From: an uncultured Mucilaginibacter sp.
GTDB lineage: Bacteria; Bacteroidota; Bacteroidia; Sphingobacteriales; Sphingobacteriaceae
Assembly (NCBI RefSeq): GCF_913773635.1
Contig: NZ_CAJYGQ010000013.1
Span: 233,973 to 297,972 of the forward strand
Length of the DNA stretch: 64,000 nucleotides
Direction: 5' to 3'
The translations under genes and the position numbers were made by a program. Shown here in pieces: positions 4,098 through 48,459 of this stretch (position 1 is the stretch's first letter; each line of letters begins with the position of its first letter). The notes beneath the pieces are model-generated. The model did not search any database, was not told the origin of the DNA, and saw nothing but the letters and a program-made list of their open reading frames with translations.

Positions 4098-7000
4098 CTA
4101 CTTTAACATCGGCTGCACGTTAGTCAAACTATAAATTCCGGCAATTAAATCATCGCTTGGATTTACGCGCATGGTTTTGGATGGCAGGTCAATAAAAAGG
4201 TTATCTTCACCGTCTTTAATCATGAAACGCAGGGCGCAGTTTTTAACTTCGTATTTTTGATTATTAGCCAGTACCATTTCATTAAGGTTGTTAACCATAT
4301 CATCGTTAAGGCTATGCAAATGCATACAAATAGTGAGCGATTTGGTCATCTTATCGCGCATTTCTGATAGCAGATTAATTGACCCAAGGCGCATATCCCA
4401 GTTGTCCTTCTGGCGATACTTTTCTTCAACAGTTCCTTTCAACTGTACAAAGAAACCATCGCCAAGCAGGTTACGGAATTTAATATAATCATCGCCAAAA
4501 AGGGCAAACTCGTAGCTATCGTAGTAATCTTCGATTACAAAGGTGCCAAAAGGTTTACCGGTTTTAGTCATTTTGTGCTGTACGTTAGCCATTAGTCCCC
4601 CAATGCTCAGCTCGCCCATTCGGCGCAGTTGCGCAAAGCGCTCAACAACATCAGCCGGTGCTTCGCCCCCGCGCATGGTTACCAATACTTTTAAGTCTGA
4701 TACAGTATTCTGGCAATATCGCTCCAGCTCCAACTTATAGTTATCTAAAGGGTGACCGGTTAAATAAATACCAATCATATCCTTTTCGTACTTCAACTTT
4801 TCTATCAGCGCCCATTCTTCACAAACAGGCATGGCAGGCTCGGGTATATAGGCCTCAACGGTTCCACCAAATAATGATGATTGCGAACTGCTTTGCGTGT
4901 TTTGATAATCGTTGGAGTATTTAATTAATCGTTCGATACCGGTTAGCAAGCCATTTTCGGTTTTGGCAAAAAACTGTGCGCGGTTTAAACCAAAACTGTC
5001 GAACGCACCGCTGTACACCAGGTTTTCATAAGCCTTTTTATTTACGTTGCGGGTGTTGCTGCGCTGGGCAAAATCAAAAACCGATTTGTAAGGGCCTCGC
5101 TCATTGCGCTCATCAATTATACTTTCAATAGCTTTTTCGCCCACACCTTTTACACCGGTTAAGCCAAAGCGTACGTCTCCCTTTTTATTTACCGCAAAGG
5201 CCATGTCCGATTCGTTAACATCCGGCCCCAATACATTGATACCCATGCGGCGGGTCTCTTCCATAAAGAAAGATATTTTATCGATACTGTTTTGGTTATT
5301 CAGTACCGCCGCCATGTACTCTGATGGGTAATGTGCCTTTAAATAAGCGGTTTGGTAGGCCACAAACGCATAACATGTAGAGTGCGATTTGTTAAAAGCA
5401 TACTGGGCAAAGGCTTTCCAGTCGGTCCAAACCTTGGTAAGTTTATCTTTAGGGTGGCCTTTGGCCATTGCCCCATCCATAAACTGCGCCTCCATTTTGT
5501 TGAGTACCTCAATTTGCTTTTTACCCATAGCTTTACGCAAAACGTCGGCATCGCCTTTACTAAAGCCTGCCAGTTTTTGCGATAGAAGCATCACCTGTTC
5601 CTGGTATACGGTAATACCATAGGTTTCGCCCAGGTATTCTTCCATGTCGTCCAGGTCAAACGTCACATCTTCGAGGCCATGTTTACGTTTTATAAAGCTG
5701 GGTATATACTCAATCGGCCCTGGTCGGTACAGGGCATTCATGGCAATCAAATCTTCAAACCTGTCGGGCTTTAACTCACGCAGGTACATTTGCATACCAT
5801 CACTCTCAAACTGGAACGTACCGTTGGTATCACCGCGTTGGTACAGTTCGTAGGTTTTCTGGTCGTCTAACGGAATGTAATCTATATCAATATCACGGTC
5901 ATGGTTCTGCTTAATCATGCGCAGTGCATCCTTAATAATGGTTAGGGTTTTTAAGCCCAAAAAGTCCATCTTAATTACACCGGCATCTTCAATTACACGC
6001 CCGTCATACTGCGTTACAAGCAGGTCAGAGTCCTTGGCAGTGGCTACAGGCACAATGTTAGTCAGGTCATCGGGCGCAATAATAATACCTGCCGCGTGCA
6101 CACCGGTGTTACGCACCGAACCTTCCAGCTTTTCAGCCTCGCGCAGTACCGTAGCTTTTAAGTCGTTACCCTCTTTAATGGCCTTAAGTTCGGGCACCTG
6201 TTCTATTGCCTGTTTAAGGTTGATGCCCAGAGTATCGGGCACCAGTTTTTTAAGCGCGTTTACATCGCTTAGCGGCATGTCAAGCACCCGGCCAACATCT
6301 TGTATACTGGTGCGGGCAGCCATCGAACCATAGGTAATAATTTGCGCTACCTGGTTTTTACCATACTTATCAACCACGTAATCAATAACCCGTTGCCTAC
6401 CGGCGTCATCAAAGTCGGTATCAATATCGGGCATTGACTTACGGTCGGGGTTCAAAAAACGTTCGAACAGGAGGTTATACTTAATAGGATCGATATTGGT
6501 AATACCCGTACAGTATGCCACTACCGAACCTGCTGCCGACCCACGGCCAGGCCCGATGAATACGCCCATATTACGACCCTCTTTAATAAAATCGGCCACA
6601 ATGAGAAAGTAACCCGCAAAGCCCATGGTTTTAATGGTAAAAAGCTCAAAGTTTATGCGCTCTTCTACCTCGGGTGTCATTTCCTTATAGCGCTCGTAGG
6701 CCCCGGTAAAGGTTAAGTGCTTTAAGTATTCCCACTGATTTAACACATCAGATTCCGGTCCGTCGTGTATTTTAAACTCAGGTGGTATAGGGAAATTGGG
6801 TAGCATGATGTCGCGTTTCAGCTTCAACACTTCTACCTTATCAACAATTTCGTTCGTATTATCTAATGATTCAGGCAGGTCATGAAATAGTTTGCCCATT
6901 TCAGCCTGAGTTTTGAAGTAAAACTGATCGTTAGGAAATCCAAAACGATAGCCCCTTCCGCCCTCATCATCAGTTGCAATAGGCGTGCTTTGCATATCGC

Positions 7001-7682
7001 CCGTATTTACACACAGTAAAATATCATGTGCATTAGCATCCTGCTGATCTACATAGTGCGAGTCATTTGAGCAAATAACCTTAACGTTAAATTTTTTGGC
7101 AAATTTAAGTAAGGTGTTATTAATTATTTCCTGCTCGGGTATTTCATGACGCTGCAACTCTATATAATAGTCTTCGCCAAAAAGGTCAAGCCACCATTTA
7201 AACTCAGCCTCAGCCTCCTCTTCTGTACCCTTCAAAATAGCTTGTGGTACCGATGCGCCAATACAGCAGGTGGTTGCTATAAGTCCTTCGTGGTATTTAA
7301 GTATAAGCTCCTTATCAATACGTGGCCATTTACTGTATAGCCCTTCCATATAACCCAAAGAACATAACTTAATTAGGTTTTTATACCCCTGAGGATTCTT
7401 TGCTAAAAACAACTGATGATGACGAACGTCTTTTTTCTCTTTGGTAAACTGTTTTTTATGACGGTCTTCTACCACGTAAAACTCACAGCCTACAATGGGC
7501 TTTACATTGTGCTTGCCGGCTTCGGCTACAAACTTAAACACACCAAACATGTTACCATGATCGGTTATGGCAAGTGCTTTCATACCATCAGCAGCTGCCT
7601 TTTTATACAGCTTTGATATATCGGCGGCGCCATCTAAAAGTGAAAACTGGGTGTGTACGTGTAAGTGAGAAAAATCGGGCAT
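4098..7682 (-). CDS. dnaE: DNA polymerase III alpha subunit
   Basis: PHP domain HLHVHTQFSLLDG, GPGRGSAAGS, catalytic MPDIDTDF, KMDFLGL, YAFNKSH, C-terminal OB fold; no intein. Confidence 0.99.
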   Translation of the reverse strand: MPDFSHLHVHTQFSLLDGAADISKLYKKAAADGMKALAITDHGNMFGVFKFVAEAGKHNVKPIVGCEFYVVEDRHKKQFTKEKKDVRHHQLFLAKNPQGYKNLIKLCSLGYMEGLYSKWPRIDKELILKYHEGLIATTCCIGASVPQAILKGTEEEAEAEFKWWLDLFGEDYYIELQRHEIPEQEIINNTLLKFAKKFNVKVICSNDSHYVDQQDANAHDILLCVNTGDMQSTPIATDDEGGRGYRFGFPNDQFYFKTQAEMGKLFHDLPESLDNTNEIVDKVEVLKLKRDIMLPNFPIPPEFKIHDGPESDVLNQWEYLKHLTFTGAYERYKEMTPEVEERINFELFTIKTMGFAGYFLIVADFIKEGRNMGVFIGPGRGSAAGSVVAYCTGITNIDPIKYNLLFERFLNPDRKSMPDIDTDFDDAGRQRVIDYVVDKYGKNQVAQIITYGSMAARTSIQDVGRVLDMPLSDVNALKKLVPDTLGINLKQAIEQVPELKAIKEGNDLKATVLREAEKLEGSVRNTGVHAAGIIIAPDDLTNIVPVATAKDSDLLVTQYDGRVIEDAGVIKMDFLGLKTLTIIKDALRMIKQNHDRDIDIDYIPLDDQKTYELYQRGDTNGTFQFESDGMQMYLRELKPDRFEDLIAMNALYRPGPIEYIPSFIKRKHGLEDVTFDLDDMEEYLGETYGITVYQEQVMLLSQKLAGFSKGDADVLRKAMGKKQIEVLNKMEAQFMDGAMAKGHPKDKLTKVWTDWKAFAQYAFNKSHSTCYAFVAYQTAYLKAHYPSEYMAAVLNNQNSIDKISFFMEETRRMGINVLGPDVNESDMAFAVNKKGDVRFGLTGVKGVGEKAIESIIDERNERGPYKSVFDFAQRSNTRNVNKKAYENLVYSGAFDSFGLNRAQFFAKTENGLLTGIERLIKYSNDYQNTQSSSQSSLFGGTVEAYIPEPAMPVCEEWALIEKLKYEKDMIGIYLTGHPLDNYKLELERYCQNTVSDLKVLVTMRGGEAPADVVERFAQLRRMGELSIGGLMANVQHKMTKTGKPFGTFVIEDYYDSYEFALFGDDYIKFRNLLGDGFFVQLKGTVEEKYRQKDNWDMRLGSINLLSEMRDKMTKSLTICMHLHSLNDDMVNNLNEMVLANNQKYEVKNCALRFMIKDGEDNLFIDLPSKTMRVNPSDDLIAGIYSLTNVQPMLK

Positions 7683-7704
7683 AACAAAATCCTTTCAGCA
7701 ATTA

Positions 7705-7712
7705 CAAAAGTA
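7705..7712 (-). promoter_or_regulatory. Bacteroidota -7 promoter box for dnaE
   Basis: TACTTTTG on the minus strand matches TAnnTTTG, 22 nt upstream of the ATG. Confidence 0.55.
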
Positions 7713-7921
7713 CGAAAAACCGCTCCCTGTTAAGGGTGCAACCGGCAAAAGTTATCTACAATAAATGTAAGTTATTAAGATTTACAGCTATAAAAAAACA
7801 TTTCGTGCGGTTCAAAGTTTTATAAGCAATTTGCCGTTGCTCTCGTCAGTTTAGCCACAAAGGCATGCGCTTTGTTGTATACAAAGCACCACACTATTCT
7901 TCATCTACAAATTATAATAAA

Positions 7922-10900
7922 TTGGGAAAATTTGGACGTATAGCTTTAAAAACCATTTTATGGATAGTTGCGAGTGTTATATTTCTGGTATTGCTTGTAG
8001 TAATTCTTATACAGGTACCCGCTGTACAACAGTTTGCAAAAAATAAAGCCGTAAACTTTTTAGAAGGTAAAATTGGCACCAAAGTAGAAATCGGACACAT
8101 TACCATTGGCTTTCCTAAAATGCTGGTATTGGAAAAGGTTTACTTTGAAGACCAGAAACGCGACACCCTTATAGCAGGTGATAAACTTAAGGTTGATATT
8201 AGCATGCTTAAGCTGCTTAAAAGCCAGGTTGAAGTTAACGAGATAAACCTGCAGGGTATTACGGCCAAGGTTAGCCGTGGTGCTGACAGTACTTTCAACT
8301 TCGATTACATTATAAAAGCTTTTGCAAGCGAGAATAAAAAAGAGCCAAAGCCGGAAGATACCACATCTACCCTCAAAATATCACTTGATAAAGTTGTACT
8401 TGATAGAATAAACATTGCTTACAAAGATGTAACAACCGGCAACGACGTTAAATTTTTGCTGGGCCATTTTGATACACGCATCAAAGATTTTGATTTGGAT
8501 AAGATGAAATTCAGCATTCCCAAAATCAATTTATCAGACGTTAATGCGCGCATCATTCAAACTCCTGCGGGTTCATCAATAGCGCAGGCGGCTACCGTTG
8601 ATACGGCTACTACCCCACTTAGCCTTGACTTAGATTTAGGTACTATTGATGTTAACCGGGTTAAGGTTGATTACCGCACCAACGAAATGAAAGCCAACGT
8701 TAACCTCGGCAAATTCTTGGTGGAGATGAATGATATTGATTTGAAAAATCAGCGCGTTGGCGTTAAAAGCATCACACTTGATGATACTAAGGCTGGCTTA
8801 CGCTTGGCCAAACCACAAACAGTGGTTACCGCAGTGGTTGAAACTGCTAAAAAAATTGACACTTTAGTTACGCCGCCGCAAAGCAACAAGCCTTGGTACG
8901 CCACCATTGGTAAAATAAGCCTTGCCAATAATGATATTAAATTTGACAATGATGCCCAGGCACCACTGCGCCGAGGATTGGATTTTGGGCACATGGACAT
9001 TAAAGGCCTGAGCACTGACATAGAAGACCTTTCATATAGCCCCGACACTATTGCCGGTAAGGTTAACCAATTTACTTTTGCCGATAAAAGCGGGTTTAAG
9101 CTTAATGAATTCCGCACGGCGTTTATGTATGGCGCTAAAAACGCTTACCTCAAAGACCTTTATGTTGAAACACCAAATACAGTCATCCAGCGCAATGTAG
9201 AGGTGGCTTACCCTTCAATAGAAGCCATCACGAAAAACATCGGTTTATTAAGTGTTGATGCCAATGTTGATGGAACACGCATTGGCTTGCGTGATGTGTT
9301 GCTGCTTATGCCAACAATGGCCTCTATGGAACCATTCCGCAGCACGCCAAATGCATCATTCAGGGTAAACGGCCGGGTAGCCGGTATGGTGAATGATTTG
9401 CGCATTTCAAACTTTGAAGTTTGGGGCTTGTCAAATACGCACATTAAAACATCGGCCGTATTAAAAGGCATGCCTGATGTTAAAAAGGCGTACTTTGATG
9501 TTAACCTTGCCGACTTTACTACCAGCCGCCGCGACATTTACCGTTTAGCACCGCGTGGCACCATTCCGCCAAGCGTAAGCATACCCGAGCGAATGAGCCT
9601 TAGCGGTAAATTAAAAGGTAGCATGCAAAATTTGACTACTCAGCTTAATTTACGCTCTAGCTATGGAAACTTATCTGCAGCGGCCAATGTAAAAAACGCT
9701 ATGGACATGAAGCGTATTTCTTACGCTGCTAATGTAAAAGCTATTAACCTCAATGCCGGAGCGCTTACCAAACAGCCTAAAATGGTAGGTCGCCTTACAC
9801 TAAGTGCCAATGTTAAAGGCGCCGGGGCCGATCCTAAAAACCTTAATGTTGATTTTAGCGCGAACGTAGCAAGCGCACAAATACAAGGTTATAACTACCG
9901 CAACCTGGTTGCAAAAGGCAGCGCCCGCAATGGCGCCTATGTAGCCAAAGCCACCATGCGCGACCCCAACATCAACTTCACGCTTGATGCTAAAGCCAAC
10001 ATGAGCAAAAAGTACCCGTCGGTAAATGCAACGCTTTTGGTTGACAGCATAAATTTACAACGCCTCAACTTTGTAAAGGATGATATGCGCTTCCACGGTA
10101 AAATTGTTGCTGATTTGCCAACTGCCGACCCTGATTACTTAAATGGCAGTGTTTTACTTACTGATATGCTTTTGGTAAATAAAGGCCAGCGTATACAGTT
10201 AGATACCGTAAGTGTTATTTCAACAGCTAACGCTGATAGCAGCAGCCTGCGCCTTAAAACTCCTTTTTTAACCGCCCGCTTAGGTGGCAAATACAAACTT
10301 ACCGAAGTTGGCGCCGCGCTGCAGGATAATATAAACAAGTACTTCAATACAGCATTGGCCGCAGCACCTGCTGTTCAAAGTAAAGCAAAGCCGGTTAAAT
10401 ATTCTCCGCAACAATTTAGCTTTAACCTAAAAATGGTTAAAACGCCATTAATAACGCAGTTTGTGCCCGATTTAAAACAGCTTGACCCCGTGATAATAAA
10501 TGGACGTTTTGATAGCCAGTCGGGTTTATTACTTGTAAATGGCAGCATACCAAAAGTTATTTATGGAACCAATACCATTGATAACGGTAAGCTTAACATC
10601 AACACCAATAACAATGCTCTTAATTACGGCCTTACATTTGACCAGGTAAAAGTTGGCGAAAGCTTAAAACTGCTGTACCCTGGCCTAACCGGTAATGCAC
10701 AAAATGACAAGCTTAACCTTAGCCTGCAAGTGCGCGATGCAGCACGCAAAGAACGCTACCGCATTGCAGGCGTGTTTAGCGTGTTGCCAAACGAATACCA
10801 GTTTAGCTTTTTACAGGATGGCTTATTGTTAGATTACATGGCTTGGGCTGTAAATCCAAACAATGCATTCCAGTTTGGCAGCAAAGGCATTTTAGCGCGC

Positions 10901-39136: not shown

Positions 39137-39841
39137 GTGACCGATTATCTGATCTTTATTGATATTGAGGCTTCTGGCTTGCCTATCAACTGGCACTCGC
39201 CCTATTCTGAAGAAGGTGCGTGGCCGTCGGCTGTGCAAGTGAGCTGGCTCATCTATAATAAGGATGGTGAGGAACTTAAGCAAGAAGATCATTACATTAA
39301 AAACTCTGATTTCATCATCACTCCCGCTGCCATGGAAATTCATGGTATAAATCCGGGAATTTTGGGCATAAAGGGCGAAGAAAGGGTACCTGTTATGCAG
39401 AAACTGGCTAATGATCTTAACCATTACAAACCGCTTGTGGTAGGCCATTTTGTACAACTGGATTATCACATTTTAAGCGCCGACTTTTACCGCGCAGGTA
39501 TCGAAAACCCGCTGGCTGATTTGCCCGTGTTTTGTACAATGATGGCAACTTCGCAGTTTATATGGAACCCCATGCCTAAAAACTTGCGCCTGGCCGATTT
39601 ATATTCATATCTCTTTTACAAATCACTTCAGGACCAGCACAATGCACTTTCAGATGCAGGTGCCACGGCCGACTGCTTCTTTGAACTCAGAAAAAGAGGA
39701 GAAATTAATGATAAGCTTATAGAAAGTCAGCAAAAATTTGCTAACATCAAAAACCTCAAAACCAAATCGGGGAAACTTTTTGCTGTTATAATTCCGGTTA
39801 TTATATTGGCGTTGCTTATACTATTTGCCCATTACTTATGA
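39137..39841 (+). CDS. DEDDh 3'-5' exonuclease (DnaQ-like) with C-terminal TM helix
   Basis: ExoI FIDIEASG, ExoII GHFVQLD, ExoIII HNALSDA; hydrophobic C-terminal LFAVIIPVIILALLILF; GTG start. Confidence 0.85.
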   Translation: MTDYLIFIDIEASGLPINWHSPYSEEGAWPSAVQVSWLIYNKDGEELKQEDHYIKNSDFIITPAAMEIHGINPGILGIKGEERVPVMQKLANDLNHYKPLVVGHFVQLDYHILSADFYRAGIENPLADLPVFCTMMATSQFIWNPMPKNLRLADLYSYLFYKSLQDQHNALSDAGATADCFFELRKRGEINDKLIESQQKFANIKNLKTKSGKLFAVIIPVIILALLILFAHYL

Positions 39842-41742
39842 CTGAACGTGTTAAATACCTTCAGCAAATAACACCTTTTAACTTATTGCCTCTTGAGGTG
39901 CTTCAAGGCATAGCCGAACAGCTTGAAGAAGTAACCTACAGCAAAGACAAGGTTATTTACCAACAGGAAATATCAAAGCTCAAAGGCGTTGATATTATTG
40001 TTAAGGGTGAATACGAATCCTTTTTTTACGACAGCGTACAAAACAAACGCCTGGTTGAATATCACAACCCCGGGTTTTGTTACGGCGGAGTATCGGTTTT
40101 ACTTAATCGCAGGCTTTCGCTACGCACCGTTATTGCCAAAAAAGGAACGCTTGTTTATTTTTTGCACCGTAAAGACTTTCGCGCTATTTGCAAAGCCTAC
40201 GAAGACTTTTTCCTATACTTCACCGCAGAGTTTGGTAAGCGCATGCAAAATGAGGAGTTTGTGCACTTTTTTAAGCAGCCACCTGCGTTCGATGACAGCT
40301 ACCTCGCGGCAGACCAGCTATACTCACGAAAAATTGACAGTCTTGAATTTCGTGCTATAGTAAAATGCAGCGCAACCACTCCTATTTATGAAGCCGCAAG
40401 GCAGATGACTAATCATAAGGTAAGCTGCTTGTTTGTAACCGACAGCCATGAGCAAATAGCAGGTTATGTAACTGATATTACGCTGCGCGATCGTGTGATA
40501 GCAGAACGCCGCGATGCCGCCGACCCACTTGAAACCGTGATGGACAGCCATACAGTTAGTATTGATGCCGACGCTTACATCTATGAGGCCATACTAATGA
40601 TGTTTAGTACCAAAACGCGTTATTTACTGGTAAAAAAGAATGACGAGTATATTGGTTTCCTGAGCCGTAACAGGTTGTTGAGCGAGCAGGCACAGTCGCC
40701 GCTGGTATTTATACAGTCAGTAAAATCGGCAGTAAGTGATGATGAGCTTAAACGCAAGTGGGAATCGGTCCCGCACTTTGTTAATCAGTTACTTGAACGT
40801 GGCGTAAACGCCAAAATTGCCAACCAGGTAATCAGTACCATTGCCGATACCATAGCCCAAAAGGTAATTGAAGGGGTAATTGAAAAAGTTGGCCCCCCGC
40901 CTGCAAAATTTGTCTTTATGGTGCTTGGCAGTGAAGGCCGTAAAGAGCAAACCTTTAAAACCGACCAGGATAATGCCATTATATATGAAGACAAAGCCAA
41001 TGAGCACCGCGAGGTGGTAAGAGAGTATTTCCTTGACTTTGCTACCCAGGTATCGGGCAGGTTAAATGGCATTGGTATTGACTATTGCACAGGGGGTTTT
41101 ATGGCACAAAACCCTAAATGGACCCACTCCCTATCTCACTGGAAACGTAACTACACCAGTTGGATGGCAGAGTCGCTTCCGGAAACGGTTATTAATTTTT
41201 CTACGTTTTTTGATTGCCGGTTTGTTTATGGCGATGAGAACATAATGCACGAATTAAAGGCGTTTTTAGATGAAGAGCTAAAAAAACCGATGGAAAAGCT
41301 CTTCCACAATATGGCCATCAATGCATTGCAGTACGAGCCACCACTTACTTTTTTCAAAAACATAAGAACGTTTACCAAGGATAAGCGCGAGGTATTTGAT
41401 ATAAAAAAAGCAATGACCCCTATAGTTGATTTAGTTAGGGTTTATGCGCTTAAGCATAGGGTATTTGAAGTAAATACAGGTGATAGAATGCAGGAGCTAC
41501 GCAAGTTAGAAGTGTTTAACGACACAGCCTATCATGAGCTTTCTCAATCGTATTACTTTTTAATGAGCATGCGTTTGAAGAAGCAGGCACTGCAAGTAAT
41601 TCAGGATAAATCTCCCCCCGATAACTATATAGACCTTTCTACACTTACAAAAATTGAGCAGGTTACCCTCAAAGAAATCTTTAAAGTAATTGGTAATTTT
41701 CAAACCAAAATACGCATGGATTTTACCAATAGCGTATTTTAA
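39838..41742 (+). CDS. cNMP-binding / CBS-pair / DUF294 nucleotidyltransferase-like protein
   Basis: N-terminal cNMP-binding fold, two CBS repeats, LGSEGRKEQTFKTDQDNAI NTase motif, DUF294_C (FDIKK...PIVDLVRVYAL). Confidence 0.9.
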   Translation: MTERVKYLQQITPFNLLPLEVLQGIAEQLEEVTYSKDKVIYQQEISKLKGVDIIVKGEYESFFYDSVQNKRLVEYHNPGFCYGGVSVLLNRRLSLRTVIAKKGTLVYFLHRKDFRAICKAYEDFFLYFTAEFGKRMQNEEFVHFFKQPPAFDDSYLAADQLYSRKIDSLEFRAIVKCSATTPIYEAARQMTNHKVSCLFVTDSHEQIAGYVTDITLRDRVIAERRDAADPLETVMDSHTVSIDADAYIYEAILMMFSTKTRYLLVKKNDEYIGFLSRNRLLSEQAQSPLVFIQSVKSAVSDDELKRKWESVPHFVNQLLERGVNAKIANQVISTIADTIAQKVIEGVIEKVGPPPAKFVFMVLGSEGRKEQTFKTDQDNAIIYEDKANEHREVVREYFLDFATQVSGRLNGIGIDYCTGGFMAQNPKWTHSLSHWKRNYTSWMAESLPETVINFSTFFDCRFVYGDENIMHELKAFLDEELKKPMEKLFHNMAINALQYEPPLTFFKNIRTFTKDKREVFDIKKAMTPIVDLVRVYALKHRVFEVNTGDRMQELRKLEVFNDTAYHELSQSYYFLMSMRLKKQALQVIQDKSPPDNYIDLSTLTKIEQVTLKEIFKVIGNFQTKIRMDFTNSVF

Positions 41743-41746
41743 TAAA

Positions 41747-41778
41747 AAAGCCACAATCAACTTAATGATTGTGGCTTT
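41747..41778. terminator. Bidirectional terminator
   Basis: aaagccacaatca / tgattgtggcttt between convergent genes. Confidence 0.8.
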
Positions 41779-41791
41779 CTTGTTAAAACTA

Positions 41792-44074
41792 TTATTTCAG
41801 ATTGAAAGGCAGATAAAAGCCGAATGTGATATTACGGCCGGGATTAAATACACCCAGCGTTGTATCTTCCTGACTTAAGCGGCCAGGCTTAAGCCGGCTA
41901 AGCGCATCATAGTAACGTTTGTTAGTTAAGTTATAACCCGAAATATATATTTTAAGAGGCTGTGATCCTAACTTAATAGTAGTGCCTATACCTGCATTAA
42001 GTAAGGTGTATGAATCAGTAGTGGTTTCAAAATCGGCATCAACTCTACCCTGGCGAAAATAATTATCAATACCCGCATAAAAATAAAACTCATGCAAACC
42101 TTTAATCTTGGGTTCAAAACGCAAGGTATTGTGTAACGTTCCGGCCGGTATAAATGGAAGCGGCTTGCTGAACGTACGATTTTGCGCATGGGTATAATTA
42201 AATGTGTTTTCGAAATGAATAAATGAAACCGGGTGTAAGGTAACGGCAGCTTCGGCACCATATAGGTTTGCATTAACCTGCCCGTAACGATACACAGGGT
42301 ACGTACCTAAATCTTCATCAGGCACTTCAATGGTTTCGTTATTGTTTGAAAGGTAAATATAGTTGTGCACATAGTTTTCGTAAACGCCAAGGCTACCTGT
42401 AAGTATACCGGTACCAAATTCCAATGTTGCATCGGCCTGGTAACTGCGCTCAGGGCGTAAATTTCCGTTTCCAATCTCGTATCTGAATGTACCTTCATGC
42501 ACTCCGTTTGCACCTAATTCTGCAGGGTTTGGCGCACGGAAGGCCGTACCGGCATTAGCTTTAAAGTTTACATACTCGTTAAAGATGTGTGTGTAGCCTA
42601 AAGCCCCGCTTATGCTGTTAAAAGTGTTGTTAAAGCCGGCAAAACGTTCCTCATCATCCTCAAATAACTGTTTACCTTTATTGCGTATGTAATCGTAACG
42701 CAAACCTGCACTCACCGTATTATCGCCGAATGTTTTTTTAACAAAACCAAATACACCTGCAGCATATGCATTGTATTCAGGTATTAATTTTTCTTCGGCT
42801 TTATTTAAGCTTTTACCTATACTTCCGCTTAAACCTATAACCGGCTCCCAGCCATTTTTGGCAGGCAGCGCATATTTAACATCCAACGAGTAGGTGTTAA
42901 GGTCAAAATACAAGGCAGGATCGGCACTGTCCTCAAGCTCGCGTCGTTGGTTTTTTTGATAGCCTAAATCAACCTTTAATGATCCCTCCCCTATAACAAA
43001 ATTGTTATTCAGGGCCACCTTGTAGTGCCGTATATCTTGCCGCGGGAAGTCCAGCTTGCGCGAACGCTCGGTAGTGTAAAGCTCATCGGCTGTTTCAGGA
43101 TCGTAAAAGCCTATATTATTTTTATAGTATGAGAAATTTAAATGCGAGTAACCCCAGCTTTTGTTTAAACCAAGCATACCACTTAGGTTTGTATTATTAA
43201 AACCGCTATTTGGAAAGTAGCCATCAGGTGTTTTAAATGAGTAAGCGTTTTGGTACGAGCCACGACCTCTCCACACAAACCCGTTTTCGTTACCTGTTAA
43301 CATTAATGACGAGCCGGTTAACCCATTATTGGTAGAATAATTTGAAAGCAATTCGCCTTTAATCTTACCCGGTGCAGGCGCTAAAGGCTCAACCAAATTT
43401 ATAACGCCGCCAATGGCATCTGATCCATATTGGAGTGAAGCAGCTCCGCGCAATACTTCAACTTTATCGGCCTGGTACTGATCAAGCTCTATTCCATGTT
43501 CATCACCCCATTGCTGTCCCTGTTGCTTTATACCATCGCTAAGGGTAACTACACGGTTATAGCCTAAACCCCGTATAACCGGCTTTGATATACCTGGTCC
43601 GGTAGTAATCTGGCTTACGCCGGGTACCTGCTTGGCCAACGCATCAATAAGGTTGGTGTAGGAGCCTTGCAATTCTTCCTTATTAAGCACCGTTGCTGAT
43701 GTGCTGTTGCTTTTGCTGGTTGATGTAAGCACCGTACCGGTTACCACCACTTCGCGTGCTTCAATTATACTTGGAGTTAAAGAAAATGACAAAGCCGTTG
43801 GCGATGACAAATCAACCGTTTTAACCTGGGTTTGGTAGCCTAAATAACTAATCTGTACCACAAAGCGGCCACGTGCCGGCAATTGCGCAAAACTGAATTC
43901 ACCGGCGGCATTTGTACTGGTACTTATTCTCAATTGCGGAATAGTAATTACAGCACCAATAATAGGTTCGTTGGTTTTGGCATCGGTAACTTTTCCGTTA
44001 AAAGCAGCAATGGCCGCTTGTAGATAAACGGGTAATATAAGCAGCATTAAGCTGCATAGAAACTTGAATTTCAT
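41792..44074 (-). CDS. TonB-dependent outer-membrane transporter, probable metal uptake
   Basis: Signal peptide, CarboxypepD_reg-like N-domain, EVVVTG TonB box, plug SKPVIRGLG and QQWGDEHG, barrel with NGVHEG, terminal PGRNITFGFYLPF. Confidence 0.93.
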   Translation of the reverse strand: MKFKFLCSLMLLILPVYLQAAIAAFNGKVTDAKTNEPIIGAVITIPQLRISTSTNAAGEFSFAQLPARGRFVVQISYLGYQTQVKTVDLSSPTALSFSLTPSIIEAREVVVTGTVLTSTSKSNSTSATVLNKEELQGSYTNLIDALAKQVPGVSQITTGPGISKPVIRGLGYNRVVTLSDGIKQQGQQWGDEHGIELDQYQADKVEVLRGAASLQYGSDAIGGVINLVEPLAPAPGKIKGELLSNYSTNNGLTGSSLMLTGNENGFVWRGRGSYQNAYSFKTPDGYFPNSGFNNTNLSGMLGLNKSWGYSHLNFSYYKNNIGFYDPETADELYTTERSRKLDFPRQDIRHYKVALNNNFVIGEGSLKVDLGYQKNQRRELEDSADPALYFDLNTYSLDVKYALPAKNGWEPVIGLSGSIGKSLNKAEEKLIPEYNAYAAGVFGFVKKTFGDNTVSAGLRYDYIRNKGKQLFEDDEERFAGFNNTFNSISGALGYTHIFNEYVNFKANAGTAFRAPNPAELGANGVHEGTFRYEIGNGNLRPERSYQADATLEFGTGILTGSLGVYENYVHNYIYLSNNNETIEVPDEDLGTYPVYRYGQVNANLYGAEAAVTLHPVSFIHFENTFNYTHAQNRTFSKPLPFIPAGTLHNTLRFEPKIKGLHEFYFYAGIDNYFRQGRVDADFETTTDSYTLLNAGIGTTIKLGSQPLKIYISGYNLTNKRYYDALSRLKPGRLSQEDTTLGVFNPGRNITFGFYLPFNLK

Positions 44075-44158
44075 GATTTAATGAAAGGGCTAAAGTGTAA
44101 TTTTAAAAAAAAGAAAATACAGCGACCCGATAAACGATCACTAGTCGATTTAGAAAAA

Positions 44159-44476
44159 TCACACTACCGGAGGCCCGCGGTTACCGGCAAGCAGTATTTC
44201 AATGCTGTTGTAAACGGGCACATATTCGCCTGTTTCACAAAAGCTTGTTAAAGCAAAAAAGTAGAACTGATGATGCTGCAAAAACAATTGCAGATTGCCG
44301 TGTTGCACACAAATTGGACAACTGTCTTCAGATATTTTCGACTTGTCTTTTTGCGCGTAATGCTTATGCAGTTGCGGGGTTACTTTGTGCGTATGCGCAA
44401 AAACAATTACCTGCCCTGTTATAAAAAAAAACAGCAGTAATATTGATGTCGATATTTTTGCGGCGCGTTTGGTCAA
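44159..44476 (-). CDS. DUF2946-like leader protein (signal peptide, His-rich, CPIC, C-terminal RGPP)
   Basis: TTG start; hydrophobic signal, then AHTHK...HKH, CPICVQH, and a GNRGPPVV terminus 84 nt upstream of the transporter. Confidence 0.75.
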   Translation of the reverse strand: MTKRAAKISTSILLLFFFITGQVIVFAHTHKVTPQLHKHYAQKDKSKISEDSCPICVQHGNLQLFLQHHQFYFFALTSFCETGEYVPVYNSIEILLAGNRGPPVV

Positions 44477-44489
44477 AGCAATTACAGTA

Positions 44490-44497
44490 CAAATATA
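44490..44497 (-). promoter_or_regulatory. -7 promoter box for leader ORF / TBDT transcript
   Basis: TATATTTG on the minus strand, 13 nt upstream of the TTG start; no such box seen in the 84-nt spacer before the TBDT. Confidence 0.6.
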
Positions 44498-44602
44498 AAC
44501 TGTAAGTGTGTGCGCTTTGCATATTATTTATTAATCCAACACTTTTATTACAAAGTATTTAAAAATGAGTGCCACTTCTCTTAAAAGTAAAAAGTTTACC
44601 TG

Positions 44603-44610
44603 TAATTTTG
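44603..44610 (+). promoter_or_regulatory. -7 promoter box for CDF transporter
   Basis: TAATTTTG matches TAnnTTTG, about 43 nt upstream of the ATG. Confidence 0.5.
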
Positions 44611-44653
44611 CTTTAAACTAAAACCTAATACACTTGCAACGTGTAATTAGCGT

Positions 44654-45547
44654 ATGCCCGCATCTAAAACTCCAATTTATACAGCGCTTGCTGCCAACCT
44701 GCTCATAGCCGCAACAAAGTTAACAGCTGCAATATTTACGGGCAGTTCAGCAATGGTGTCGGAAGGTATTCATTCCTTAGTTGATACCAGCAACGAAGTA
44801 CTACTGCTGCTAGGCATACGTAAAAGCCAAAAGCCTGCCGATGCTGTGAGGCAGTTTGGCTACGGTAAGGAACTCTACTTTTGGTCGTTTGTGGTGTCAC
44901 TTTTGTTTTTTGCCCTTGGCGGGGGCTTTTCCATATACGAGGGCATTGAGCATTTGATGCACCCGCAGCATGTTAAAAACCCTATTTGGAATTACATTGT
45001 GCTTGGTATAGCGTTTATATTCGATGGTATATCGTTTATAACTGCTTTAAAGGAGTTTAAACGTCAGCGCGGAGATACGCCTTTTTGGAAGGCAGTACAC
45101 GTAAGTAAAGATCCATCAACCTTTGTGGTACTTTTTGAAGATGCCGCCGATGTTTTAGGTATCCTGATAGCGTTTACAGGGATATTGCTTGGTCAAATTT
45201 TAAACAACCCATATATTGATGGCATTGCCTCGGTTATGATTGGCCTGCTTCTTACGGCTGTAGCCATTTTGCTGGTACGCGAAAGCCGCAGCCTGCTCAT
45301 GGGTGAAAGCGCATCGGCAGAGGATCTGCATGCAATTACCTGCATCATTGAAAACAACAATAACGTACAGCAGGTGCTATCTCATCAATCAATGTACCTT
45401 GCTCCCGAAGAAGTGATTTTGGTGCTAAAAGTAAGGTTCGCCGAACGCTCAATTGTTGAGGATTTGAGTAAGACCATAGAAGCACTAAAGAAAAGTATAC
45501 AAAATAAGTATCCTCACTTTAAGCAGATTTACATTGAAATAGGGTAA
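44654..45547 (+). CDS. Cation diffusion facilitator (CDF) family transporter
   Basis: SEGIHSLVD (TM2 HxxxD), QFGYGKE, LFEDAADVLG (TM5), C-terminal cytoplasmic domain. Confidence 0.92.
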   Translation: MPASKTPIYTALAANLLIAATKLTAAIFTGSSAMVSEGIHSLVDTSNEVLLLLGIRKSQKPADAVRQFGYGKELYFWSFVVSLLFFALGGGFSIYEGIEHLMHPQHVKNPIWNYIVLGIAFIFDGISFITALKEFKRQRGDTPFWKAVHVSKDPSTFVVLFEDAADVLGILIAFTGILLGQILNNPYIDGIASVMIGLLLTAVAILLVRESRSLLMGESASAEDLHAITCIIENNNNVQQVLSHQSMYLAPEEVILVLKVRFAERSIVEDLSKTIEALKKSIQNKYPHFKQIYIEIG

Positions 45548-46677: not shown

Positions 46678-48459
46678 ATGCCCGATAAACTTGAACTGAA
46701 TGACAAGCTAGTGTCTGAATTGCGCCAAATGGCCAAGGACCTGGGTATTGCCGAAGCAGACGAACTGCGCAAGGCTCAGCTTGTTACACGCATAACCGAA
46801 CAACAACAGCTTATAGAAACCGCAAGGGAACAACAAGCTACTCTTGATACTAATTATAGTAACGGTACTGATACTGCTCAAAGTGCCGCCGCTCCGGCTG
46901 CTGAAGCAGAAAATGACGATAAACCACGCAAACGTACGCGTAGCGTAAAGGCTAAAACTCCTGCCGCAGAAGCAGAGGTTACTGCAGCTGCTGATTTATT
47001 TGCCGCACCCGAGCCTATTGTACAGGCTGAAACTGCAATTGCAGGTACACCAAATGATGTACAGGCAATTGAAACCGTTACCGAAAACACGCACACACCG
47101 TTTGCGGCACCACTTGCCGAACAAGCAACACGCACGCGTACGCAAAAATTTGAGCGTGAGCGCCGTCCGCAGGGAAACCCGCGCGAAGGACAAAACCAGC
47201 AACGCGAGAATCAGCAGCCTCGTGAAAATAATCATCAGCAGCGCGAGAATAACCAACAACGTGAAAACGGTCAGCAACGCGAAAACAACCGCGAGCATAA
47301 CCGCGACAATAATCAAAATAAAAAGGAAGAGATAAACCTTGATTTTGATAACGTTATTGTAAACGAAGGCGTTTTAGAAATTATGCCTGATGGTTACGGT
47401 TTCCTGCGCTCGTCTGACTATAACTATCTTACCTCTCCTGATGATATTTATGTATCACAATCGCAAATCAAATTGTTCGGATTGAAAACCGGCGATACCG
47501 TGAGAGGTAGTATTCGTCCACCAAAAGAAGGTGAGAAATACTTCCCGCTGGTGCGTGTAGAAGCCATCAATGGCCGTATACCTGCCGAGGTTCGTGATCG
47601 TGTTCCATTTGATCACTTAACGCCTCTGTTCCCGTCGGAGCGCTTGAACTTGTTTACTGATGGCAGCAATTATTCAACCCGTATTATGGACCTGTTTTCA
47701 CCAATTGGTAAAGGTCAGCGTGGTTTAATTGTGGCGCAGCCTAAAACAGGTAAAACCATGCTTTTAAAGGATGTGGCTAATGCAATTGCAAAAAACCATC
47801 CGGAGGTATACCTTATTATATTACTGATTGACGAACGCCCTGAGGAGGTAACCGATATGGCCCGCAGCGTACGCGCCGAGGTGGTTTCATCAACGTTTGA
47901 TGAGCCGGCCGAGCGCCACGTTAAAATTGCCAACATTGTGCTTGAAAAAGCGAAACGTATGGTAGAGTGTGGTCATGACGTTGTTATATTGCTCGACTCT
48001 ATTACCCGTTTAGCGCGTGCTTACAATACCGTAGCACCTGCATCAGGTAAAATACTATCGGGTGGTGTTGATGCCAACGCATTACACAAGCCAAAGCGCT
48101 TTTTTGGTGCAGCCCGTAACATTGAGGATGGCGGTTCATTAACCATTATTGCTACAGCACTTACTGAAACCGGCTCTAAAATGGATGAGGTTATCTTTGA
48201 AGAATTTAAAGGTACCGGTAATATGGAGCTGCAACTGGATCGTAAGTTATCTAACAAACGTATCTTCCCTGCTATTGATATTACTGCATCAAGTACCCGC
48301 CGCGACGATTTGTTGTTAGACCGCGAAACCCTGCAACGCATATGGATTCTTCGCAATCACCTTGCCGATATGAATTCAATCGAATCGATGGAGTTTTTAC
48401 AGGCACAAATACGTGGCACCAAATCAAACGAAGAGTTTTTGGTATCAATGAACTCATAA
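46678..48459 (+). CDS. rho: Transcription termination factor Rho with long N-terminal insertion
   Basis: [67 protein letters not shown]. Confidence 0.99.
47170..47325 (+). repeat. Imperfect tandem QQREN-like repeats in Rho insertion domain
   Basis: [43 protein letters not shown]. Confidence 0.85.

Follow-up and report, generated by a model that had tools for sequence, protein, structure and literature searches.

A putative metal-sensing arrest leader of the CruR/CutF type upstream of a TonB-dependent transporter in Mucilaginibacter

The leader gene and its product

The window analyzed here is a stretch of 64,000 nucleotides (nt) from an uncultured Mucilaginibacter sp. (contig NZ_CAJYGQ010000013.1, positions 233,973 to 297,972). 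On its minus strand a small open reading frame (ORF), hereafter called the leader, precedes a gene for a TonB-dependent transporter, and its product is a candidate metal-sensing arrest peptide. An earlier note on this DNA had described a 105-residue ORF with a signal peptide, a His cluster, a CPIC motif, further QH and HH pairs and a terminal RGPP, separated by 84 nt from a transporter carrying the motifs GDEHG and NGVHEG. All these elements were found at the places described. The leader runs from a TTG start codon (44474-44476) to a TGA stop codon (44159-44161), is present in a single copy in the genome from which the window is taken, and encodes the product MTKRAAKISTSILLLFFFITGQVIVFAHTHKVTPQLHKHYAQKDKSKISEDSCPICVQHGNLQLFLQHHQFYFFALTSFCETGEYVPVYNSIEILLAGNRGPPVV. 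The 84-nt spacer ends at the ATG of the transporter, at position 44074. Coordinates of the features are given in Table 1.

The N-terminus of the product is rich in Lys and Arg and is followed by a hydrophobic stretch of about 20 residues, then by V-F-A immediately before His28. This was taken as a predicted export signal on the basis of hydropathy, and the cleavage site was placed by the -3/-1 rule. In an AlphaFold model computed with the family alignment, a helix covers residues 3-30 (predicted local distance difference test, pLDDT, >85). Only this N-terminal helix is confident (predicted template modelling score, pTM, 0.36); no other fold was confident and none was fit for a structure search. 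The His residues comprise H28, H30, H37 and H39, besides the later QH and HH. Cleavage before His28 could leave an X-X-His mature N-terminus resembling the amino-terminal Cu(II)- and Ni(II)-binding (ATCUN) motif. At the other end of the protein, the RGPP is followed only by Val-Val and the stop codon. It is the sole occurrence of R[AGS]PP in the open frames of the window (about 36,000 residues), which, together with the conservation of the motifs over hundreds of relatives, argues that the leader motifs are not due to chance.

Other identities were considered for the leader and rejected: a lipoprotein, because there is no lipobox Cys; the precursor of a ribosomally synthesized and post-translationally modified peptide, because no modifying enzymes are encoded nearby; and a protein whose RxPP end serves as a C-terminal sorting signal, because neither a transmembrane segment nor a basic tail follows the motif.

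Table 1. Features of the leader-transporter locus (positions in the window)
Feature	Position	Strand	Remark
Leader ORF, 105 codons, TTG start	44159..44476	-	candidate metal-sensing arrest peptide
Export signal, codons 1-27	44396..44476	-	predicted; n-region TKRAAK, hydrophobic core, invariant GQ, predicted cleavage between VFA and H
His28-Thr-His30	44387..44395	-	nearly invariant HxH at the would-be mature N-terminus; H28 and H30 conserved in at least 90% of sequences
Cys53-Pro-Ile-Cys56	44309..44320	-	invariant CxxC in 150 aligned relatives, with His59 after it
Arg100-Gly-Pro-Pro103	44168..44179	-	predicted arrest motif; 43 residues past the CxxC, 2 codons before the stop
Spacer hairpin, 8 pairs	44120..44143	-	terminator-like site; starts 24 nt past the second Pro codon
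U-rich tract UAUUUUCUUUUUUUU	44105..44119	-	directly after the hairpin
TonB-dependent transporter, 760 aa	41792..44074	-	CarboxypepD_reg, plug and barrel domains; heme/ZnuD-type subfamily
Transporter-end hairpin GCCACAATC/GATTGTGGC plus T6	41744..41775	-	strong, read from sequence; ends the two-gene unit
Bacteroidota-type -7 box TATATTTG	44490..44497	-	13 nt upstream of the leader TTG
TGTAATA block	44546..44552	-	midway between the divergent leader and efflux-gene promoters; invariant in all seven RGPP-clade loci
Cation-diffusion-facilitator (CDF) efflux gene	44654..45547	+	divergent from the leader; common 177-bp control region

Conservation of the leader peptide

A first search returned ten close relatives, in which GNRGPP, CPIC, FAHTH and QHG are all invariant. 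An exhaustive profile search yielded 38 representative clusters, and a follow-up word-based search with that alignment yielded 551 proteins, nearly all of them from Mucilaginibacter isolates, metagenome-assembled genomes (MAGs) and soil metagenomes. The leader of the window is 98% identical to that of Mucilaginibacter aquatilis HME9299. Over 150 aligned members, Gln22, Cys53, Cys56, Pro102 and Pro103 are invariant, and Gly21, His28, His30 and Arg100 are nearly so; xHxH variants occur among the relatives at the HxH position. Across loci the Arg, Pro and Cys of these motifs use several synonymous codons (TGT or TGC in the case of Cys), which indicates a constraint on the peptide and not on the RNA.

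According to the earlier note, its reading would be refuted if RGPP and CxxC were not conserved in orthologous leaders; the outcome of this test favours the reading. Besides the invariance of the CxxC and of the two prolines, R-[AGS]-PP is found in 155 of 160 relatives (RAPP 106, RGPP 25, RSPP 24). The distance from the CxxC to the C-terminal motif is 43 residues in 146 of these 160 proteins and 42-44 in all, and it is 43 in the 11 loci of the RGPP clade, to which the window belongs. The intervening sequence is poorly conserved, and the distance from HxH to CxxC varies (19-29 residues). Since the stretch from CxxC to RxPP is fixed in length and free in sequence, it resembles a ruler spanning the ribosomal tunnel rather than a folded domain.

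An Arg-less form of the motif was also found: H-A-D-G-L-S-P-P is strictly conserved, with a spacing of 44 residues, in one genus (12 of 12 genomes) and in locus L024. These LSPP loci (L008, L010-L012, L014-L018, L020, L021, L023 and L024) retain the CxxC, the HxH, the spacer hairpin and the transporter. Variation of another kind concerns L031, L032 and L033, where a 1-nt deletion throws the ancestral stop codon out of frame. A new stop is used 15 nt downstream, so that the tail of the peptide has 7 residues instead of 2 and the stop abuts the hairpin; the RNA lengths are unchanged (22-27 nt from RGPP to the hairpin, 90-93 nt from RGPP to the ATG).

The order of leader and transporter is conserved as well. 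The leader was found in 28 of 201 genomes of the family (all 12 genomes of the window's genus, all 12 of a second genus, and 3 further ones). At all 27 true homologue loci a transporter homologue lies directly downstream on the same strand, behind spacers of 59-162 nt.

The two genes appear to be served by a single promoter. The -7 box TATATTTG is the sole TAnnTTTG-type box outside coding sequence on the minus strand, and none was found in the spacer between leader and transporter; the claim that a promoter box is present only upstream of the leader was therefore correct. All 33 related loci have a TAnnTTTG or nAnnTTTG box, located 15-40 nt before the start codon of the leader. The distance is only 19-22 nt in the clade of the window, and with a box so near the start the predicted 5' untranslated region (UTR) is about 6-10 nt long. 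At the conserved start position of the 33 loci, TTG was counted 21 times, GTG 11 times and ATG once. This striking avoidance of ATG suggests a low output of the leader. The gene after the transporter (39838-41742) is convergent.

Relation to CruR, CutF and the DUF2946 family

The leader is of a kind already known, represented by CruR (2022), CutF (2021-2025) and a 2025 survey of upstream ORFs ending in RAPP or RGPP. CruR (Bp2923) is encoded upstream of the transporter gene bfrG in Bordetella pertussis and belongs to the Pfam family DUF2946 (PMC9426467). Its function requires the CXXC, the RAPP and their spacing; a fixed CxxC-to-motif distance of 45 +/- 1-2 residues is a hallmark of the CruR family, and more than 95% of DUF2946 members carry an export signal (PMC9426467). 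When the ribosome arrests on CruR, its P and A sites are occupied by the two Pro codons (PMC12992588). According to the same work, RAPP and RGPP, which arrest translation at the peptidyl-transferase centre, were stronger than the other motifs tested, RGPP being the strongest tetrapeptide; RSPP is partly permissive, and in Gram-negative bacteria at large, TonB-related genes are found behind RAPP/RGPP upstream ORFs (PMC12992588).

The likeness of the leader to CruR is extensive. Both are small, poorly structured, exported peptides with a conserved CxxC, an R-A/G-P-P located 2-3 residues from the C-terminus and a fixed distance between the two; in both cases the gene comes first in a unit that includes a TonB-dependent transporter, from which a non-coding spacer separates it. 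The differences are as follows. The spacing is 43 residues here instead of 45, an HxH follows the signal peptide, and the leader is below PF11162 detection. The spacer is 84 nt long, AT-rich and contains a conserved hairpin and U tract, whereas that of CruR is 162 nt long, GC-rich and contains a Rho site. No PepSY gene is present downstream of the transporter.

CutF, encoded upstream of the multicopper oxidase gene cutO in Rhodobacter capsulatus (PMC8456105; bioRxiv 10.1101/2025.02.05.636593), corresponds to what is proposed for the leader in being a DUF2946-type exported sensor, with a Cys motif exposed during co-translational export and a C-terminal proline stall controlling the next gene. 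CutF differs in having CxxxC and PPP, and in that copper induces the stall, which melts a stem-loop over a Shine-Dalgarno site. There is no such site here; unmasking of the transporter start is unsupported at the locus of the window and supported in the sister RAPP clade. ApdA, ApdP, ApcA and SecM are also related in design, with an RGPP/RAPP near the C-terminus of a small secreted protein encoded upstream of a co-directional gene (PMC12992588; PMC10987492), but they monitor protein export and not metal.

We then examined the correspondence between the leader and PF11162, the Pfam profile of DUF2946, whose gathering score is 23.7 bits. The profile does not match any protein of the window's own genome. 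Among relatives, 16 of 37 match at E <= 10, and 34 of 150 match at E <= 0.01. Only one relative exceeds the cut-off (P0153, 25.1 bits, profile positions 34-117). In all six matches with a displayed extent, the alignment reaches the RAPP end of the profile, its last position. When the 150 relatives were scanned one by one, the only other match to recur was a spurious membrane-helix match. For a few relatives, the annotation in NCBI or UniRef is already DUF2946. Judged by its sequence, the leader is a twilight-zone relative of the DUF2946/CruR family that shares its architectural hallmarks, and not a demonstrable Pfam member: it was not filed under PF11162 because the protein of the window is below detection and a single relative passes the cut-off. 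Pfam and NCBIfam searches with the leader gave nothing usable, the weak match to LIC10965 scoring 17.7 bits against a cut-off of 130 bits. Comparison of the family profile with solved structures gave only sub-threshold zinc-finger and RING matches (E >= 0.011), which were not used as evidence.

The spacer hairpin

A hairpin followed by a T-rich tract had been claimed in the spacer. Both are present, but the best register of the hairpin, UAGUGAUC/GGUCGCUG, is slightly off the cgac/gtcg arms first described. The terminator-like site is followed by TATTTTCTTT. A hairpin with a T-rich tail occurs in 18 of 27 related spacers, compared to 1.0 expected from dinucleotide shuffles, and in most of the remaining spacers a hairpin falls just short of the criteria. 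In the RGPP clade, the spacer hairpin is the sole helix retained by RNAalifold, and 5 of its 9 pairs show compensatory changes on both sides. The distance from the second Pro codon to its start differs among clades: 22-27 nt (RGPP), 18-24 nt (LSPP) and 29-35 nt (RAPP). Folded without a ribosome, 23 of 29 loci have the hairpin in their lowest-energy structure; with the footprint of a stalled ribosome masked, 27 of 29 do. A search of Rfam with positions 43900-44750 gave no match at E <= 1.

Proposed mechanism and alternatives

Taken at the level of sequence, the conservation of the motifs, the fixed 43-residue distance, the synteny at 27 of 27 loci and the conserved spacer hairpin support the CruR/CutF-like reading given in the earlier note. 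We believe that the leader is probably, though by no means certainly, an exported, cis-acting, metal-sensing ribosome-arrest peptide of the CruR/CutF type, with the polarity of CruR and a read-out through the hairpin and U tract. The ribosome would stall with the two Pro codons (Pro102/Pro103) in the P and A sites. At arrest, the CxxC would be about 46-49 residues from the peptidyl-transferase centre, which would place it just past the tunnel, at or in the translocon; the HxH would already be exported, and would form an N-terminal X-X-His site if signal peptidase cuts after Ala27. Metal bound to Cys53, Cys56 and the His residues would put the nascent chain under a different tension or into a different fold, and so alter the duration of the stall. 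Without metal, the stall would persist and the transporter would be expressed. With metal, the stall would be relieved and the ribosome would depart; transcription would then end at or near the hairpin and U tract, which would act as an intrinsic or Rho-assisted pause or termination site where the decision falls, and metal import would be shut down. Translation initiation in Bacteroidota proceeds without Shine-Dalgarno guidance. The conservation of the spacer hairpin and T-rich tail, with compensatory changes, fits a transcriptional output, as surmised in the earlier note.

In a first alternative the arrest peptide is the same but the output is translational, as in CutF (bioRxiv 10.1101/2025.02.05.636593): the stalled ribosome would melt a pairing over the transporter start, and the hairpin would only be a scaffold bringing the two strands together. 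We consider this improbable for the locus of the window. In a RAPP subclade, UUUCAUAA, which comprises the last leader codons and the stop, can pair with the complementary UUAUGAAA at the start of the transporter, and this tail-to-start pairing is significant (p <= 0.01) in six loci (L003, L006, L009, L019, L022 and L025). Masking the ribosome footprint in the RAPP clade lowers the cost of opening the start region from 6.7 to 3.7 kcal/mol, a cut of about 3 kcal/mol, in 6 of 8 loci, controls being unaffected. In the lowest-energy fold of the window (z = -2.35), the hairpin is enclosed by two pairings, one between the stop region and AAAAUUACAC and one between GGGC and a GCCC located upstream of the ATG. 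However, this long-range helix was dropped, as RNAalifold retains none, and in the window the tail-to-start pairing does not reach significance (p = 0.30). The cost of opening transporter positions -18 to +10 is low in the window and barely changed by masking (4.9 to 4.5 kcal/mol); it is unchanged in L029 (4.0 to 4.0 kcal/mol), and only 2 of 10 RGPP-clade loci respond.

A second alternative, to which we give an equally small chance, keeps the arrest peptide and reverses the polarity, in the manner of the pyrBI coupling attenuator. The stall would leave RNA polymerase ahead, the hairpin would form and transcription would terminate; on release the ribosome would reach the stop codon and hinder the hairpin, and metal would stabilise the stall as copper does in CutF, where stalling is metal-induced. 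The trp, his and pyrBI attenuators do resemble the present arrangement, in that a short leader is translated ahead of the structural gene and a hairpin with a U tract lies between the two, but no alternative antiterminator pairing is present here, and it is the state of the nascent chain that would be sensed instead of charged tRNA or nucleotide supply. The geometry argues both ways. The hairpin is free to fold with a ribosome at RGPP, and in L031-L033 and the LSPP clade the stop codon is -2 to 12 nt from the hairpin, such that a terminating ribosome would cover its 5' arm; in the window and the RAPP clade this distance is 15-23 nt, beyond the reach of a terminating ribosome. The polarity of CruR was chosen because the cargo gene is an importer, and because in the RAPP clade a ribosome on the 3' end of the leader exposes the transporter start: with the opposite polarity, arrest would terminate transcription yet unmask the start codon, which is self-defeating. 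The unmasking in the RAPP clade argues that arrest means ON across the family.

In the least probable alternative, the leader product is a stable protein that is exported and binds metal in partnership with the transporter, for instance as a metallochaperone or accessory protein, and its RxPP is a structural or targeting feature and not a stall site: the HxH, CxxC and adjacent His do resemble a metal site, the LSPP clade retains all but the Arg, and small co-operonic periplasmic partners of TonB-dependent transporters are common, but there is no confident fold past the signal helix, the 43 residues are fixed in number and not in sequence, the nearly general TTG/GTG starts suggest low output, bacterial proteomes avoid RGPP more than any other tetrapeptide (PMC12992588) and the window has no second copy of it, and the CruR protein itself could not be detected (PMC9426467).

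Several observations weigh against a CruR-like arrest with read-out through the hairpin. Its weakest link is the read-through step. A ribosome stalled at RGPP would have its front edge 12-17 nt short of the hairpin, which folds just as well in its presence as in its absence, and the mechanism requires that read-through be favoured by a ribosome at this distance upstream; Rho protection as in CruR, or coupling to RNA polymerase, could provide this. No conserved antiterminator or mutually exclusive structure was found across the 29 loci, and an antiterminator was rejected since masking the ribosome footprint does not keep the hairpin from forming. L029, the nearest relative, has a degenerate U tract. 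The LSPP clade lacks the Arg essential for RAPP-type arrest, so that either it uses a different stall motif or it has lost stalling. The constant RNA geometry in the RGPP clade concerns close kin and may reflect inheritance rather than selection. A predicted 5' UTR of about 6-10 nt combined with a TTG start is unusual, and PF11162 does not match the leader of the window at E <= 1.

The transporter and the candidate metal

The closest solved structure to the transporter is the Neisseria zinc receptor ZnuD (PDB 4RDR, E = 1.7e-17). The His residues of the GDEHG and NGVHEG motifs both align with His residues of ZnuD, and these motifs are thus subfamily features. The similarity is nevertheless low: heme-receptor and ZnuD models of NCBIfam score equally and the copper model scores lower, all of them far under their cut-offs (130 bits against 950 bits for ZnuD), and the present protein has an N-terminal CarboxypepD_reg domain, in which it differs from ZnuD.

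We estimate zinc to be the first candidate for the sensed metal, although at well below an even chance, followed closely by copper and then by nickel or cobalt. Zinc is favoured by ZnuD as nearest solved relative and by the alignment of the His residues. The divergent CDF exporter and the Cys2-His ligand set are also compatible with zinc, as they are with cobalt or nickel. Copper or nickel would be suggested by the CruR and CutF precedents and by the possible ATCUN-like N-terminus. In Caulobacter, DUF2946 genes are also found beside zinc-regulated genes (PMC4176598). A more specific version of the mechanism, which we regard as rather unlikely in this exact form, is that the metal is zinc or nickel and not copper, that it would be caught extracytoplasmically by a composite site made of the N-terminal HxH and the CxxC, and that the read-out would be made by the spacer hairpin and U tract.

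Leaders precede two lineages of transporters, which are about 62-67% and about 40% identical to that of the window. Both lineages are found inside the LSPP genus, which indicates that the leader travelled with, or was recruited to, paralogous receptors. In L036 (positions 6479-8747, a Sphingobacterium MAG) the transporter gene following the leader is broken up, giving two frames of 516 and 143 residues, possibly a pseudogene or an assembly error.

Genomic neighbourhood

The divergent CDF gene has a promoter box, TAATTTTG, at 44603 on the plus strand. The same divergent neighbour is found in L002, L029, L030 and L033, and not in L035. The TGTAATA block located between the two promoters is a possible site for a shared regulator. 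An inverted repeat with 10-nt arms (CACTTACAGT N10 ACTGTAATTG) brackets the -7 box of the leader (44479-44508). It was rejected as an operator: it is not conserved in relatives, one arm being mutated in M. aquatilis and conservation being absent in M. terrae, and it may be due to chance.

In sister clades, a conserved box, TAACAAnnTTGTTAC(G), is present about 30 nt upstream of the -7 box of the leader (L003-L009, L013, L019, L022, L024 and L025), and in LSPP-clade loci it lies farther upstream of the leader promoter. A half-site of this box resembles the Zur boxes of Caulobacter (ATTGTTAT...), which suggests a repressor layer on top of the leader in these clades; the Zur-like box is absent from the clade of the window. 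The gene of the Rho termination factor (46678-48459, plus strand) is located two genes from the leader, and its product contains a long low-complexity N-terminal insertion made of Gln/Asn/Arg/Glu repeats.

Biological significance

Metal uptake through the outer membrane is usually ascribed to repressors such as Fur and Zur. In CruR and CutF the nascent peptide itself is the metal sensor, so far only in Proteobacteria and only for copper. No Bacteroidota names appear in the text or tables of PMC9426467, which lists Proteobacteria and a few other phyla, and no example of a metal-sensing stalling leader in Bacteroidota was found in the literature. The variant features of the present leader are its sub-threshold relation to DUF2946, the 43-residue ruler, the HxH pair, and a spacer hairpin with U tract in a phylum where initiation is not guided by Shine-Dalgarno pairing.

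The locus and its approximately 550 relatives extend the CruR/CutF architecture to soil Bacteroidota, which initiate translation without Shine-Dalgarno pairing, and this setting makes the step that couples the stall to expression directly testable. The family offers natural variants for comparison: RAPP, RGPP, RSPP and the Arg-less LSPP clade; stop codons whose position shifts within a constant RNA geometry; and sister clades with and without pairing between the 3' end of the leader and the transporter start. If a composite zinc or nickel site with a hairpin read-out proved true, it would bring a new read-out and a new ligand to the CruR/CutF class, and would be the first leader-peptide metal switch shown in Bacteroidota.

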